Positions 7,094 through 61,724 of a stretch of 64,000 bases of DNA are shown here, in pieces. The translations under genes and the position numbers were made by a program. Origin of the DNA: Shigella phage TB004. The notes under the pieces were generated by a model. The model saw only the letters and a list, made by a program, of their open reading frames with translations, ran no database searches and was not told the DNA's origin. Numbering within the stretch: the stretch's first letter is position 1; the number at the start of each line of letters is the position of its first letter. Location of the stretch: sequence record MW822011; one strand, given 5' to 3'.

Positions 7094-7123
7094 GTTTACT
7101 TCCTCGGTTAGTTGTGGTATTAT
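7094..7123 (+). promoter_or_regulatory. T4-type early promoter
   Basis: aaaaagttgtttac ... tggtattat. Confidence 0.45.
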
Positions 7124-7150
7124 AACACCATAGCTACTGAGGATAATAAA

Positions 7151-7651
7151 ATGAAAATTTATCGTGTTGAATCATCTTTTAGTATTCTTAATTATGAAGA
7201 TGCTATAACAATACGTCGAAATCTTTGTGTTCAAATAACGCCGTACAGGAGTATAATAGATTCATGGAGCGAAGAGTGGCTATTACACGTAGGTTATGAT
7301 AGACCTAATTTTATGCATCATAGCGATAATAATAAAAGAATTCCTTTACCACACGAAGATAAACTATTAGTTAAAAACGCTAATATAGTAATTAATACTA
7401 AGTTCAAGAAAGATTATGTTGGAGTAGAATATCATATTCCAGGATGGTTTATAGCTCTTTATCATTTTGCTTTCGCTAGTGAGTATGATATGATGAGATG
7501 GTTCACGCGAGAAGAGCGGGAAGAATTATCTTCTAAAGGATTTTATCTCGCTGTATACGAAGTTCCTGAAGATGAAGTTATCATTGGTGGGCACCAAGTA
7601 ATGTTCCGCAAATCGCATGCTGAACTCGTAGATTTTATTGAAATGAGATAA
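7151..7651 (+). CDS. hypothetical early protein (166 aa)
   Basis: ORF track frame 7112..7651; ATG at 7151 after gagga. Confidence 0.5.
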   Translation: MKIYRVESSFSILNYEDAITIRRNLCVQITPYRSIIDSWSEEWLLHVGYDRPNFMHHSDNNKRIPLPHEDKLLVKNANIVINTKFKKDYVGVEYHIPGWFIALYHFAFASEYDMMRWFTREEREELSSKGFYLAVYEVPEDEVIIGGHQVMFRKSHAELVDFIEMR

Positions 7652-7653
7652 TT

Positions 7654-8196
7654 ATGAAATTTAATTATAATCCTGAATACATACCAAATCCGGTAGCTAA
7701 ACTGATTGATTTTGATGTTGTAAGCACTTATGTATGCCCTGTTAAACCACTGGAAATTAAGGAACCTACTATGACTACCGCTATTGAAATCGGCAAAACC
7801 TACAAACTGGTTGAACCTGAAATTAAAACTAATGCCTTGATTTCCGGCTATAAAACTTTGACTGATGTTTTTGGCGAAGGCGAATTTACCGTTGAAGACT
7901 TTGAAAAAAGTAAATGGTTTACTAAATCTTATATTGTCCACGGTCGTCGTTTAGACAATAACAAAATAGAGAAAATCCTGGTTTATGAAGCAGAGTTCAT
8001 CCTGTTCCAAGAAGTTGAAGAACAAGACCCTACCGACCTTCTAACTCGTGCAGTAGCTATTAAGACCCCATTTATTTCGGTCTGTGGTTGGGTAACAGAC
8101 CAGTGGATTGAAGATGGTGTTGAACTTCTGAACGTTGTTCATGCAGGTGATTTTAGCGTAGTACCTCGTAGTGCAGTGGTAGCTATTTTGAATTAA
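7654..8196 (+). CDS. hypothetical protein, paralog of the MotB-like ORF (180 aa)
   Basis: shares C-terminal motif (C/Y)(G/A)x(V/I)TDQW(I/V)EDGV with 8273..8770. Confidence 0.5.
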   Translation: MKFNYNPEYIPNPVAKLIDFDVVSTYVCPVKPLEIKEPTMTTAIEIGKTYKLVEPEIKTNALISGYKTLTDVFGEGEFTVEDFEKSKWFTKSYIVHGRRLDNNKIEKILVYEAEFILFQEVEEQDPTDLLTRAVAIKTPFISVCGWVTDQWIEDGVELLNVVHAGDFSVVPRSAVVAILN

Positions 8197-8198
8197 TA

Positions 8199-8234
8199 GT
8201 TTACAAACTCTTGGGACCAGAGTATAATGGTCCC
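8199..8234 (+). promoter_or_regulatory. early promoter whose -10 TATAAT sits in the loop of a 7-bp inverted repeat (GGGACCA / TGGTCCC)
   Basis: gtttac ... ttGGGACCAgagtataaTGGTCCCg. Confidence 0.45.
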
Positions 8235-8272
8235 GTGGAGTATAAAATCTTTTTAACAAGTGAGAGATAACT

Positions 8273-8770
8273 ATGATTATTAATATTGGTGAAATTGCTC
8301 GTGTATCTGATAAATCCCGTTCTAAAGCAGCAGGAAAATTGGTTGAAATTGTAAGCATTCAGCTTAAACATGGTGTTAAAGATGAAGATTCTGAAGTAAA
8401 AGTGCGTATCATTCCTAAAGATGGAAAGTCTAAACCTCAGTTTGGCTATGTTCGTGCGAAATTTCTTGAGTCTGCGTTTTTGAAAGCTGTTCCTGCTAAA
8501 GGAATTGAAACGATTGATACTTCGCATGTAGGTGTAGACTTTAAGTGGAAACTCGGTCAGGCTATTAAGTTCGTTGCTCCTTATGAATTCGAATTTACTG
8601 AAGATGAGGAAGGGGTTGTTCAAAAACATCGTACTCGTGCTATGTGTGCATACATTACTGATCAATGGGTAGAAGATGGCGTTAAGCTGTACAACGCGGT
8701 ATTTTTAGGAACATACAAAGTCATTCCTGAAAGTTGGATTAAACACTATAGTAAAGCTCGCTGTGCATAA
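8273..8770 (+). CDS. motB: MotB-like protein (165 aa), assigned by synteny and size
   Basis: ORF track; position between the dexA cluster and gene 39 as in T4. Confidence 0.45.
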   Translation: MIINIGEIARVSDKSRSKAAGKLVEIVSIQLKHGVKDEDSEVKVRIIPKDGKSKPQFGYVRAKFLESAFLKAVPAKGIETIDTSHVGVDFKWKLGQAIKFVAPYEFEFTEDEEGVVQKHRTRAMCAYITDQWVEDGVKLYNAVFLGTYKVIPESWIKHYSKARCA

Positions 8771-8802
8771 AGTTTAATTTTTTTTTTCATAAACTATATA
8801 CA

Positions 8803-8841
8803 TCAGTAGTTGATTATGGTACTATATCAATATCAACTACT
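8803..8841 (+). repeat. copy of the dispersed promoter/leader repeat, here flanked by an 11-bp inverted repeat
   Basis: CAGTAGTTGATtatggtactatatcaatATCAACTACTG. Confidence 0.5.
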
Positions 8842-8943
8842 GGTATAGAAAATAACTTGGAGAATAAAATGGAAAATTTGCCAAAGGTGCTGCTACTCTT
8901 CTGAAACGCATCGCTCCAATGTTCAATTAACGAGGAAATTGTA

Positions 8944-11916: not shown

Positions 11917-11945
11917 TTTACTTTACCACAAGGATGTGGTATAAT
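11916..11945 (+). promoter_or_regulatory. T4-type early promoter (GTTTAC ... TGGTATAAT)
   Basis: agtttactttaccacaaggatgtggtataat. Confidence 0.5.
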
Positions 11946-29653: not shown

Positions 29654-32600
29654 TTATTCAATCCATTCAAATTTAACAGATTTATTCACTGGGTCAGGAA
29701 TAATGCGAACATTACCAATTCGTAAGAAATCACGAATAGTAAGATTCCCCATTGTAGCATTATCAGATGGTAAAGCACCGATATCAGATGGTTGAGGAGG
29801 GTTACCTCCGTCAAATACCTGAACAAAACTTGACCAAGAGTTTTTGGTTTTCTGCCATGTACGTGTCCAGCGAGTGGTACGTGCTTCTGGAGTCGTTGGA
29901 TAAGTAATCCAATCTTGGTAAAGCGAATCAAGTGTGTTACCAAACTGAGTCAATGTACCAGGAGATTTAACTTCTTCGCCACGTTCTAAGTATGGAAGTC
30001 CAGTCACTTCATTAGTTTTTTCAACCATTTTAAAATAACCTGGGAACTGGTTATAAGTAGCTGAATCATTAATATCGATTGACCAGAATCCTACAGTATC
30101 AGATGTTGGCGCACGGGTATATAAGTCAGATGTTTTAGTGCCCTGAGAACGAATTCTCGAGTTAACAGTTAAACCACCTGAATTTATAGTAGCACCTTTG
30201 GCAATGATTAAGCTTTCACCAATCGTTACTTGACCGGACTGATTGTTAATAGCTAAAGGACGTAATCCATTAAATCCGCCAGTCTGATCACCTGATGTAG
30301 TAAGCATAAAATAGACATTAGCACCATCATTACGAATAAAGAATCCGTAATTACCACTAATAGCTCTAAAAGCATTCGATGATTTGCTGATGAATTCACC
30401 ATTAGCAGTAACTGAACGACCGAATGTTGCAACGCCATTAACATTCATCAAACCGGAAGCATTAATGTTTATTGGCATTACAGTACCATTAATGCTAAAC
30501 GCTATATTCCCGTCTTCTTTATTACGTTGAGAATAAAAGTGATAAGATGTATCATCACCAACTTCAAACACTGTCGAACGGGTCGTATCACTACCGCCGC
30601 CAAATTGGTTACCCCATACACGGATGCTCATTGACTGAACCGGGTTTGCACCGGATGCAGGACCTTTTTCGAAAACGATACGGGTCGGAGTTCCAGTATT
30701 AGAAATAGTTAATGTACTATTTGCCGAAACTGAACCACCAAACGTAGCAGTACTAGATGATACAAGAGGGGCACTCAGATTCGTTTGTTGGGTTAAGGTT
30801 AGTGAACCATTAACCGTCTGTGCAATGTCCCTACGAATGAACTGGGATGAATCTAGACCATCCAATAAATTTGTATCAGCAGCTTTTGCTTTTAATGGCA
30901 AATAATTTGCTAATACACGGTTTAATTCATATGGTGATACTGCATAACTATTTTTTTCGTATAATTCTAATGACTGGGTTGAACCAACGGTATCATTACC
31001 GACGAATGTAATTGAACCAGATGAAGTTTTAACAAATCCTCTTATCGCAGTAGTAGCTGCCCAAGTAGGTTCACTCTGCACAATCCATTTTAAATTTTTT
31101 GGAGATACAGCAGTATTTGCTGACGTTCCAGTTACAGTTTCAGACTGAGTTGCAACTTTAATAACACCTTCCTGTGCTTCAGTAGATTTAGTACCTAAAA
31201 GCTTTTTAGGAGTTATTAAAACATTATCTAATGTTCCTGCAGCAGCTTCAACTTGCGTAGCTACACGAAGTGTACCACGCTGTTTCTCATTTGCTTCAAG
31301 AATATTAAGGGTATAATGGTCCCAGAGAGTTCCTGATTCAACTAATCCAGATAGAGCAACAACAGAAGTACGATCAGTACTATTAAATCTAGTTTTAATT
31401 TTTAATGGTGTAGAGATACGAGTATCGTCGACGCCTGCGTCGAATTCAACTTGTGTAGCAATTTCAGCTATACCACTTAAACTTTCAGTTGCTCTACGGT
31501 CATTTAAAGTTTTAGGAGTGACTGCACGAGTATAATCAGTTCCTGTATTAACTTCACTTTGCGTAGCAATTTCAATTAAACCAATTCTTCCATCAGTTGA
31601 TGTCTTTTTATGTAACGTTTCTGGCGTTACAACAGCATTTGCCCATCCTTCTTGACTTTTTCCAGCAATTACTTCACTTTCAACTGCTAAAATTACTGCA
31701 CCTTGTTGTGTTGGAGTAGCTTTATACTGATCCAGAGCTTTAGGTGAAACAACTAAATTATTAGTGTTTTTATTATAAACGTTTGTACCATTTAATTCAC
31801 GACTAGAAGCTGGAGTAGCTCCTGCAGTAGATACAAATGTTACAATACCAGATAATGATTCAGAACCTTGTCGAGCTTGAAGCTTTTTAGGAGTGATGAT
31901 TGTAGTATCATCAGTACCTGCATTAGTTTCCTGTTGCGTAGCAATTTCAGCAACACCTCTACGAGTTTCTGTAGCAGTTCTTTCATTCAGCTTTTTAGGA
32001 GTGATGATAATATCATCAGCAAAAGAGAATGTGGTGTTCTGATTCACTTGAGCAGTAGTTGCTATTCTTGCGATACCTCTACGAGTTTCTGTAGCAGTAC
32101 GGTTAGCTAATGTTTCTGGAGTAATTGCTAATTCTTTTTGTGGAGAATTTTCTAAATCGACATTAGCTTGAGCTTGTGTAGCTAAAGCAATTACACCTAA
32201 TCTTGCTCTAGTAGAATCATTTAAAGAATCAACTCTTTCTACGGTTGGAACGTTTTGCTGTACAACCCAATATTTTCCATCAGAATCTTCTATGTAAGCA
32301 AGCTCCAAAACTGGAACATAATTAGTTTCACCGTTAAAAACTAATTCTTGAACAGTCACCCATTTAGTTTCAGGCGGATACTCTGAACGTTTTGGGAATT
32401 GCAGCAATTGAACTGAAGAAGCAATTTTATCTTCACCGGCAGCTTTGATTTTAACTGTTTGTCCTTTTCTCATGTAATTCATGGAAATTTTAACAGTATC
32501 ACCAACAGAAATATTAGTTGGAAGCTTAAGCTCAATTGTCTGAGCTGTTCCGTTATTCGCACCAAATACCATAACTTCTTCATTTGGACGAATATTAGAA

Positions 32601-47411: not shown

Positions 47412-47465
47412 GTTTACAAGTCCCTCGTGTTGTGTTATAGTAATCTTACTGACATAACATGAGGA
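47412..47465 (+). promoter_or_regulatory. 54-bp early promoter / imperfect palindrome cassette upstream of alc (copy A)
   Basis: gtttacaagtccctcgtgttgtgttatagtaatcttactgacataacatgagga; near-identical to 61671-61724. Confidence 0.6.
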
Positions 47466-50795: not shown

Positions 50796-51323
50796 ATGAG
50801 CGAATGGTTTGAAGAAGATAAGGTTTATCGCTTTAAAGCTGGATATAAAGATATTTTTAATGAAACCTGCGGGGCTAATAAACGAATTGCCCAGTTTATT
50901 GGGGAAAATTCATTTAAAGTAAAAATAGATCCTGCGAAAAATGTTATTAGCATTAAACGTGAAATTGATGATTGCTGGTATAAAGCTGTTGATGTAATGG
51001 GCGAATCCTATAAAGTTAGCCCGTTATTTTCAATTGCTTATATGTTGGAATATTCTTTTTTCGAAGAAGTTCAAAAAGATGACTCTGTCAGTAAATTTGA
51101 AATTAAAGCTGATAAAGAAATTAAGTGGAAAGTAGTAGGTATTACTGGTTGTATGTTTTATATCTATGCTCAAACTGATACGAAGGAAGAAGCTAAAAAG
51201 AAAGCTCTAGAATATCTCGAAGAGTATGAAGAAGGTCCGGTAATGATTACTCAAGATGCTGAATTAGTTTCTGTCAAATTAGTTAAAAACGTTGAAAGTA
51301 AGGAGCTTGGATCAACATGCTAA
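50796..51323 (+). CDS. hypothetical protein (175 aa)
   Basis: ORF track; gaggaaa SD. Confidence 0.5.
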   Translation: MSEWFEEDKVYRFKAGYKDIFNETCGANKRIAQFIGENSFKVKIDPAKNVISIKREIDDCWYKAVDVMGESYKVSPLFSIAYMLEYSFFEEVQKDDSVSKFEIKADKEIKWKVVGITGCMFYIYAQTDTKEEAKKKALEYLEEYEEGPVMITQDAELVSVKLVKNVESKELGSTC

Positions 51324-61313: not shown

Positions 61314-61699
61314 ATGGAACTTATTACAGAATTATTTGACGGCGCTTCGGCGCCGGTTGTTAACTTAAATCCTAAGCATAAAATACCACAAATTTTTGCT
61401 ATTCAAGCCGGCGAAGAAAGCGTGCTTCCTGGATTTAGATTTTGTACATACACCTCTGGCGGTGATACGAATAAAACGTTAAGCCGGGCGATAAAATGAT
61501 GCATATCGTAATGATAGGTGTTAATGAGAAACTATCATTAGTTAAGCTTAAAAACTTGGGTGGAAATCCAATTGGTGTCATTAATGCTGTTTTTGATACT
61601 GCTCTTCAAACAATGAAACAGTATAAAATCGACGCATGCCTATTACGCGTACTAAAAAGTTCAAAATGTAGTTTACAAGTCCCTCGTGTTGTGTTATAG
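61314..61699 (+). pseudogene. frameshifted tandem duplicate of the alt 5' region (Alt N-terminal fragment in two ORFs)
   Basis: MELITELFDGASAPVVNLNPKHKIPQIF ... FCTYTSGGDTN then frameshift, then MMHIV ... TALQTMKQYKIDACLLRVLKS; parallels Alt residues 1-120. Confidence 0.6.
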
Positions 61700-61724
61700 T
61701 AGTCTTACTGACATAACATGAGGA
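61671..61724 (+). promoter_or_regulatory. 54-bp early promoter / imperfect palindrome cassette (copy B)
   Basis: gtttacaagtccctcgtgttgtgttatagtagtcttactgacataacatgagga; one mismatch versus 47412-47465. Confidence 0.6.

Follow-up and report, generated by a model that had tools for sequence, protein, structure and literature searches.

The 64,000-nucleotide stretch of Shigella phage TB004 (sequence record MW822011) analyzed here, called the window below, comes from a T4-like phage (Tequatrovirus), and its + strand corresponds to the minus strand of T4 (T4 coordinate = 15414 - window coordinate). It carries, upstream of the gene motB, an early promoter that is interleaved with a conserved hairpin and closely followed by a target site of the RNase RegB and its partner S1. 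All three lie in the 76-bp intergenic gap between a motB.1 homolog and motB; the 80 nt from the motB.1 stop to the motB AUG are exactly those of T4, and 669 phage records match a 701-nt query taken around the promoter. The features of the locus, including the open reading frames (ORFs), the Shine-Dalgarno sequence (SD) and the motB coding sequence, are as follows.

7654..8196, + strand: motB.1 homolog, the upstream cistron, 180 aa, a paralog of motB (ORF list, T4 annotation)
8199..8204, + strand: -35 element GTTTAC (T4-type, -36 to -31) of the motB early promoter (T4 early consensus, PMC1524935; identical in T4)
8207..8212, + strand: 5' flank ACUCUU, predicted from the fold to pair with G8235 and GGAGU (8237-8241) and so to mask the RegB GGAG
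8213..8219, + strand: 5' arm of the core hairpin, GGGACCA (inverted repeat, covariation)
8220..8227, + strand: loop GAGUAUAA, 8 nt, containing the first five bases of the -10 (sequence, fold)
8223..8228, + strand: -10 hexamer TATAAT of the motB early promoter, invariant across all relatives
8228..8234, + strand: 3' arm of the core hairpin, TGGTCCC (inverted repeat, covariation)
8235..8235, + strand: predicted +1, G8235, 7 nt past the -10 if GTTTAC is taken as -36 to -31
8237..8247, + strand: RegB/S1 target GGAGUAUAAAA, cleaved between G8238 and A8239, the same as in the minimal motB substrate (PMC1702504)
8262..8266, + strand: motB SD, GAGAG, outside the hairpin (sequence, folds)
8273..8770, + strand: motB coding sequence, 165 aa (ORF list)

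The original prediction, made from the letters of the window, had placed an early promoter and an inverted repeat at 8199-8234; the sequence is as it was given there, and both elements are confirmed. The promoter reads TTTACA (8200-8205), 17 bp, TATAAT, or GTTTAC, 18 nt, TATAAT when counted from the T4-type element, which occupies -36 to -31 in the T4 early consensus (PMC1524935). It is the top sigma-70-like match (11/12) over the first 20 kb of the window's + strand, is preceded by the A/T-rich segment TATTTTGAATTAATA, and has the sequence of a T4-type early sigma-70 promoter. For the identical T4 sequence upstream of motB, a 5' end of the motB promoter is reported in vivo, seen as a reverse-transcriptase stop at 3 min (PMC1702504, Fig. 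5 legend). No promoter or structure feature is annotated at this site in the T4 GenBank and RefSeq records.

The RegB site is likewise known from T4. The T4 motB RNA is a model RegB substrate that is efficiently cleaved in vivo, and its minimal version ends in GGAGUAUAAAA, a site whose cleavage is reported in vivo and in vitro (Durand et al. 2006, PMC1702504). In the window this sequence starts two unpaired bases past the core stem, that is, at +3 of the promoter's own transcript, and fits the RegB consensus GGAGRAYARAA at 10 of 11 positions. As at other RegB/S1 sites of T4 early mRNAs, the target in this early leader must be single-stranded, and structure inhibits RegB (PMC1702504). Both the promoter and the RegB site are thus established by the T4 literature and the identity of the sequences. 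Published RegB work deals with the 11-nt site only and does not describe a conserved hairpin 2 nt upstream or an overlap with the promoter. A motB RNA in which GGAG was changed to GGAC resists RegB completely in vitro, since GGAC pairs perfectly (PMC1702504); we infer that its partner is GUCC of the 3' arm, the sole nearby complement. The 11-mer TATAATGGTCC recurs once in the window (31312-31322), inside a 1290-aa minus-strand ORF, and this second copy was judged a coincidence.

The core inverted repeat (8213-8219/8228-8234) consists of 7 perfect base pairs with arms 8 nt apart. The earlier description of a -10 hexamer in the loop of a perfect 7-bp hairpin therefore holds for the stem and for five of the six -10 bases, the last one, T8228, being also the first base of the 3' arm. 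RNA folding, which had been suggested as a check, gives a stable hairpin whose helix lengthens to 13 pairs (8207-8241, one bulge) at -19.7 kcal/mol, with z = -4.66 against shuffles, and which ranks fourth in stability among the 41-nt local folds on both strands of the window. Perfect 7-bp inverted repeats with loops of 3-10 nt are unremarkable as such (the window has 112, dinucleotide shuffles have 57 +/- 9.5), but those with at least 5 G/C per arm stand out in this AT-rich genome (9 against 0.5 +/- 0.9). An Rfam scan at E <= 10 returned no family covering 8199-8247.

The core hairpin ends at -1, and the predicted +1 falls one base past the 7-bp stem, so that RNA initiated at the motB promoter lacks the whole core hairpin. 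By geometry, its folding is restricted to transcripts that come in from motB.1, as the original prediction had held. Such readthrough is expected because the + strand has no terminator-like site between the upstream promoter and the hairpin (a terminator scan of this strand found none between 7130 and 8200). The motB SD (8262-8266) and AUG (8273) lie outside the helix, which sequesters neither; masking of the SD was rejected for this reason, and a weak AUCUUUU/GAGAGAU pairing occurs in both types of transcript. The promoter-initiated leader is no more structured than shuffles (z = -0.1). The idea that the hairpin could be a processing site stands insofar as the RegB/S1 site GGAGUAUAAAA adjoins the stem, but the cut falls outside the hairpin and is made by RegB instead of RNase III or RNase E; the core of 7-9 bp, extended to at most 13 pairs with a bulge, does not amount to the near-continuous helix of about 20 bp or more that characterizes RNase III sites.

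The motB upstream regions were gathered from viral contigs, metagenomes and GenBank phages. Most variant diversity came from the GenBank phage records, while the IMG/VR and metagenome scans gave few new variants. The 13 distinct sequences, from three genera (Tequatrovirus, Gaprivervirus and Dhakavirus), were aligned without gaps and anchored on TATAAT, and their stems are the following.

Window and T4: GGGACCA / TGGTCCC, perfect
Most Tequatrovirus: GGGACCA / TGGTCCT, one G·U
L006: GGGATCA / TGGTCCT, two wobbles
Gaprivervirus VR26: GGGGCCA / TGGTCCC, one G·U
L023 and L044: GGGGTCA / TGACCCC, perfect, with double compensatory changes at two pairs
L032: GGGGTCG / TGGCCCC, fully paired, two G·U
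Dhakavirus (IME08, AnYang and others): GAGAGCCAT / ATGGCTCTC, 9 bp, register unchanged
Dhakavirus single variants: three distinct one-base changes, giving G·U or U·G

In the 7-bp core, 98.9% of the cells are paired, against 31-50% when control partners are slid by 1-3 columns, and pairing is missing from one cell only, the U·U of phage TH44, whose record carries the flag UNVERIFIED. Double compensatory changes affect four of the seven core pairs and occurred in separate lineages at several positions. None of 500 shuffles reaches the observed covariation score, although the rows are phylogenetically related, so that the shuffle statistics overstate independence and are not probabilities. As judged from these comparisons, the motB hairpin is well beyond chance, and the covariation shows that pairing is under selection.

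The molecule in which the pairs form is indicated by the one-sided changes. At least seven independent transitions (four C>T and three A>G on the + strand) all yield G·U on the + strand, and the alignment cells contain nine G·U and no A·C on this strand. Moreover, in each of the 13 variants the + strand gives the more stable RNA of the two, with a mean advantage of 3.3 kcal/mol over the - strand, and the core keeps a stability of -8.8 to -16.5 kcal/mol across all of them. Because the one-sided changes are all G·U on the + strand, which is also the more stable one, the pattern points to selection of the hairpin as a sense-strand RNA structure, and far less plausibly as single-stranded DNA of the same sense. 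A duplex palindrome read by a protein is disfavored, since each G·U on the + strand is an A·C on the complementary strand.

Outside the core, the nine Tequatrovirus and Gaprivervirus rows show no change in the 5' flank, even though it lies in the promoter spacer, a segment that usually tolerates variation. The linker that joins the core to the GGAG differs (GT, GC, ACT, GCT, AT or AC). This pattern, with a fixed flank, a covarying core, a variable linker and a nearly fixed GGAG, fits an interaction between the flank and the GGAG. The motB promoters of Mosigvirus lie at the same place, without the bracketing hairpin and without the A-rich GGAG site in the leader; in them, GGAG precedes the -10 and the leader is shorter by 16-18 nt. 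Hairpin and leader RegB site therefore co-occur, both being missing in Mosigvirus, which we count in favor of the reading proposed below. Separately, the direct repeat GAGTATAA occurs at 8220-8227 and 8238-8245 (spacing 18 nt), and the Tequatrovirus leader resembles a Mosigvirus-type promoter (GGAGTATAAT) with an 18-nt duplication creating the leader RegB site. The second copy of GAGTATAA forms a -10-like element at +6 to +11, where a sigma-70-dependent pause is possible.

We tentatively favor a switch by transcript origin, in which the hairpin would mask the RegB site in readthrough RNA. In this reading, the motB early promoter is overlaid with a cis-acting RNA hairpin whose 5' arm lies in the spacer, whose loop is the -10 and whose 3' arm ends one base before +1. 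In RNA arriving from motB.1, the GC-rich core would clamp the ACUCU(U)-GGAGU extension and hide GGAGUAUAAAA from RegB/S1, so that structured RNA would mark the junction of the motB.1 and motB cistrons. In RNA started at the promoter, the site would be free from +3, and RegB would strip off the 5' triphosphate end and commit the immediate-early motB mRNA to decay. This effect of the hairpin on RegB access or RNA fate is what we infer. A column-based covariation test of the extension helix gave no usable result, because the linker differs in length between genera and MAFFT splits the GGAG across columns. Masking was therefore estimated sequence by sequence, as the energy needed to open the 11-nt RegB site in readthrough and in promoter-initiated RNA.

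Window and T4: readthrough 6.8, promoter-initiated 1.5 kcal/mol
Dhakavirus L016: readthrough 4.8, promoter-initiated 1.1 kcal/mol
Gaprivervirus L008: readthrough 4.5, promoter-initiated 3.0 kcal/mol
Dhakavirus L009 (GGAU variant): readthrough 2.9, promoter-initiated 2.5 kcal/mol
Dhakavirus L043: readthrough 3.0, promoter-initiated 2.3 kcal/mol

The predicted masking is thus strong in T4 and variable elsewhere. Several points weigh against the proposed switch, beginning with this one: masking is predicted to be weak in L008, L009 and L043, and universal conservation extends to the core hairpin followed by 2-4 nt and GGAG, not to the masking. The GGAG is always just outside the covarying core, whereas it is within the stem in the sister modules described below. 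Furthermore, the motB SD is not sequestered and translation is not obviously affected; the U·U mismatch of TH44 lies in mid-stem; the alignment rows are related, as noted above; and the motB region can be dispensed with in the laboratory (PMC1702504). Engineering of this region in T4 has already been done (PMC1702504).

Similar arrangements are present at other early promoters. Two further modules flank the motB.1-motB locus in the window.

7094..7153, + strand: motB.2 promoter module, GTTTAC with TATTAT (7118-7123) in the hairpin loop (folds)
8797..8871, + strand: probable third module, between motB and cef, with a hairpin at 8804-8842 of -17.9 kcal/mol

The motB.2 hairpin (7102-7142) is the most stable 41-nt fold of the window at -21.0 kcal/mol (-23.7 for a 52-nt segment), and its variants in relatives are wobble-compatible. 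Its 3' arm finishes in the GG of the RegB GGAU site GGAUAAUAAAA, which doubles as the SD (7141-7151); among GGAU sites, this is one of only two for which Durand et al. found cleavage by RegB (PMC1702504). In the third module, the hairpin surrounds a -10-like TACTAT (8820-8825, within TGGTACTAT) with a -35-like TATACA, so that the promoter assignment is weak, and a perfect RegB consensus, GGAGAAUAAAA (8859-8869), is the SD of a tiny ORF (ATG 8869) before cef.

When a bracketing hairpin was required to have at least 10 pairs and a stability of -13 kcal/mol or stronger, 5 of the 13 strong TTTAC-type promoters on the + strand of the window were found to have one around the -10, compared with 1.8% of background positions (binomial p of about 2e-6, two of the five being duplicate copies). 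Near-identical promoter-hairpin modules occur at 47413-47465 and 61672-61724 (TTTACA-17-TATAGT, -22 kcal/mol), with a 3' arm CAUGAGG that includes the SD, and similar copies are found in T4 upstream of dmd (20588) and near mobD.2 (57966). In T4 (1-78 kb), about 8 of 18 GTTTAC promoters place the -10 in a hairpin in the same way, including those upstream of ipII, dmd and regB, and the layout is shared by about 40% of T4-type early promoters. In most cases the 3' arm is the SD or RegB GGAG, paired with a CU-rich box beside the -35. For example, the regB early promoter (T4 62773, L049, minus strand) is nested in an 18-pair hairpin of -21.6 kcal/mol, in which the 3' arm AAGAGGAGAA, containing the SD and the RegB autoregulatory site, pairs with UUUUCCUCUU beside the -35; this hairpin would hide both from use in readthrough transcripts. 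The SD is likewise predicted to be hidden at the motB.2 and ipII promoters. The architecture is also present in other genera, where the stems are unrelated in sequence.

It is possible, though on balance doubtful, that T-even phages systematically nest their immediate-early sigma-70 promoters in RNA hairpins and so use a genome-wide code based on transcript origin. Each such module would consist of a CU-rich box by the -35, the -10 in the loop, and an SD or RegB GGAG that lies within the 3' arm or next to it. Transcribed from its own promoter, the early cistron would be exposed, translated and rapidly cut by RegB, whereas in readthrough RNA it would be folded, shielded from RegB and often untranslatable; motB would be a variant in which the leader RegB site is gated instead of the ribosome-binding site. 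T4 early expression is switched off abruptly by a mechanism that is incompletely understood (PMC3014915), and RegB accounts for part of this shut-off. In inactivating early mRNAs, RegB works jointly with RNase E, RNase G and T4 polynucleotide kinase (PMC3014915). If true, the code would help to explain the abruptness with which early protein synthesis stops, as well as the old distinction between immediate-early and delayed-early genes. A hairpin-wrapped early promoter beside a proven RegB site, together with the prevalence of the layout, suggests a general discrimination between promoter-proximal and readthrough RNA.

The closest known parallels are T4 e, soc, 49 and I-TevI (also I-TevII, I-TevIII, segB and Aeh1 mobE), where a promoter is likewise located in the 5' half or loop of a hairpin (PMC3014915, PMC2988022). 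There too, transcripts from upstream fold while those from the internal promoter lack the 5' arm, and the behavior of the cistron depends on the origin of its RNA. However, these are late promoters (gp55, TATAAATA), and according to a review all known promoter-in-hairpin cases are late genes (PMC2988022), whereas motB has an immediate-early sigma-70 promoter. Moreover, their helix hides the SD or AUG (the early modules at motB.2, regB, ipII and others hide the SD too), whereas the motB SD is free and the leader RegB/S1 site is next to or under the helix. The motB promoter and RegB site were already known; the conserved hairpin and the recurrence of the layout at early promoters appear to extend the known promoter-in-hairpin principle in a new way. 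We found no description of the motB hairpin and no maps of T4 transcription start sites or Term-seq ends in the literature, older subscription literature being outside the search.

Phage lambda sib offers a second parallel, as the fate of an RNA segment is set there by the promoter, only the longer transcript having both halves of a nuclease-relevant structure. This dependence on the promoter of origin is what we propose for the motB hairpin. In sib retroregulation of int, however, an RNase III site arises downstream of the gene once the hairpin is complete, whereas the motB hairpin lies upstream and would, by prediction, conceal the target of an RNase specific for single strands.

Alternatively, the same helix could block 3' exonucleases, or mark a 3' end produced by processing, and so set both the 3' end and the half-life of the upstream motB.2-motB.1 mRNA. 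After a cut by RegB (or RNase E), the GC-rich hairpin followed by about 4 nt would resist PNPase and RNase II, and the masking of GGAG would be incidental. The universal arrangement of core hairpin, 2-4 nt and GG^AG speaks for such a barrier, as does a core whose stability is kept in every variant, and stable hairpins occur in three successive intergenic gaps of a gene row without intrinsic terminators. We nevertheless consider it rather unlikely: RegB is known to speed up the decay of early mRNAs (PMC3014915), to which a stabilization of upstream RNA runs counter; the GGAG is predicted to be paired in T4, so that RegB would spare the readthrough RNA; and in the sister modules the GGAG is inside the helix, a better fit to masking than to end protection.

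The hairpin could instead bind a protein or have another structural role in readthrough RNA, for example as the site of a translational repressor, in positioning S1 or RegB, or by stabilizing an RNA polymerase pause about 10 nt downstream. Covariation shows only that the helix matters, sequences 5' of GGAG stimulate RegB cleavage without being required (Durand et al., PMC1702504), and a second -10-like element, TATAAA, is present at +6 to +11. There is, however, no known candidate protein, the stem is free to vary in sequence, which argues against its sequence-specific recognition, and the loop is uninformative since it is fixed by the -10, which makes such a role distinctly unlikely.

We regard it as quite improbable that the hairpin is an attenuator or terminator that halts transcription from upstream and prevents occlusion of the motB promoter. 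It is strong, GC-rich and located at the end of a cistron, just after the stop codon in a compact operon, as are intrinsic terminators and the intercistronic stabilizer hairpins of T4, and a UCUUUUU run begins 8 nt past the extended stem. However, its stem is followed by GUGGAGUAUAAAA, and no genus has a U-tract within 0-2 nt of the stem (GUGGAGUAUAAAA, ACUGGAGAAUAAAC, AUGGAGAAUAAAC); the site is missing from the list of the terminator scan, and the sister hairpins are followed by A-rich SD regions. Unlike terminators and stabilizers, it also overlaps a promoter and has an 8-nt loop dictated by the -10 rather than a stable tetraloop. The attenuation proposed in the original prediction was abandoned on these grounds.

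The protein operator that had also been suggested fares no better, nor does any other element acting in DNA, such as a cruciform or a hairpin of the non-template strand. The 22-bp dyad centered on the -10 has the classic geometry of a palindromic operator for a dimeric repressor, and single-stranded DNA hairpins also tolerate G·T pairs. Yet the dyad symmetry is broken in most genomes (the commonest form is GGGACCA/TGGTCCT), every one-sided change makes a G·U on the + strand but would be an A·C on its complement, and the stem is wholly different between genera while the flanking promoter is retained. MotB itself binds DNA without sequence specificity (PMC6070864), and the annotated oriA lies elsewhere, at T4 16763, so that a replication origin at the motB promoter was dropped. 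An element acting in DNA is thus very improbable.

The early promoters that the virion RNA polymerase of phage N4 uses are extruded DNA hairpins recognized by that phage enzyme. They resemble the motB promoter in having a short inverted repeat, but motB is transcribed by the sigma-70 holoenzyme of the host, and RNA is what its substitution pattern indicates.

Finally, a chance inverted repeat riding on a strongly conserved promoter is hardly credible: about 57 bare 7-bp repeats are expected in 64 kb and much of Tequatrovirus is near-identical at this promoter, but GC-rich repeats exceed expectation (9 versus 0.5), the fold ranks fourth in stability in the window, compensatory changes at four of the seven pairs in three genera already contradict this explanation, and the layout repeats at other early promoters.

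Whatever its function, the unit formed by the promoter, the hairpin, the RegB site and motB seems to be mobile, because in the metagenomic relatives L025 and L031, which have another gene upstream of motB (about 110 nt upstream), homology starts at or a few bases upstream of GTTTAC. For annotation, promoter, hairpin and RegB site may be treated as one compact mobile module with a recombination junction at GTTTAC, and the layout could be used in designing phage expression cassettes.

The upstream cistron shows a difference between T4 and its relatives. The T4 reference motB.1 is shortened by one extra G (ggattggaagatgg compared with ggattgaagatgg in the window; T4 L001, minus strand, around 2310-2290), and because of this truncation the T4 annotation shows a 149-bp "intergenic" gap where relatives have coding sequence. 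The full-length motB.1 product is a MotB paralog, and the two share a C-terminal motif (VTDQWIEDGVELLNVV / ITDQWVEDGVKLYNAV).

In addition, we observed a second class of early promoters, in which a short hairpin with an AGGA loop is wholly inside the spacer; the stems differ and the loop is kept, as in CCACA-AGGA-TGTGG, CATCCA-AGGA-TGGATG and AACCA-AGGA-TGGTT. Such hairpins are present at 11917-11945 in the window, at about 2434 and at 50949 in T4, and in the Mosigvirus motB promoters of L037 and L039.

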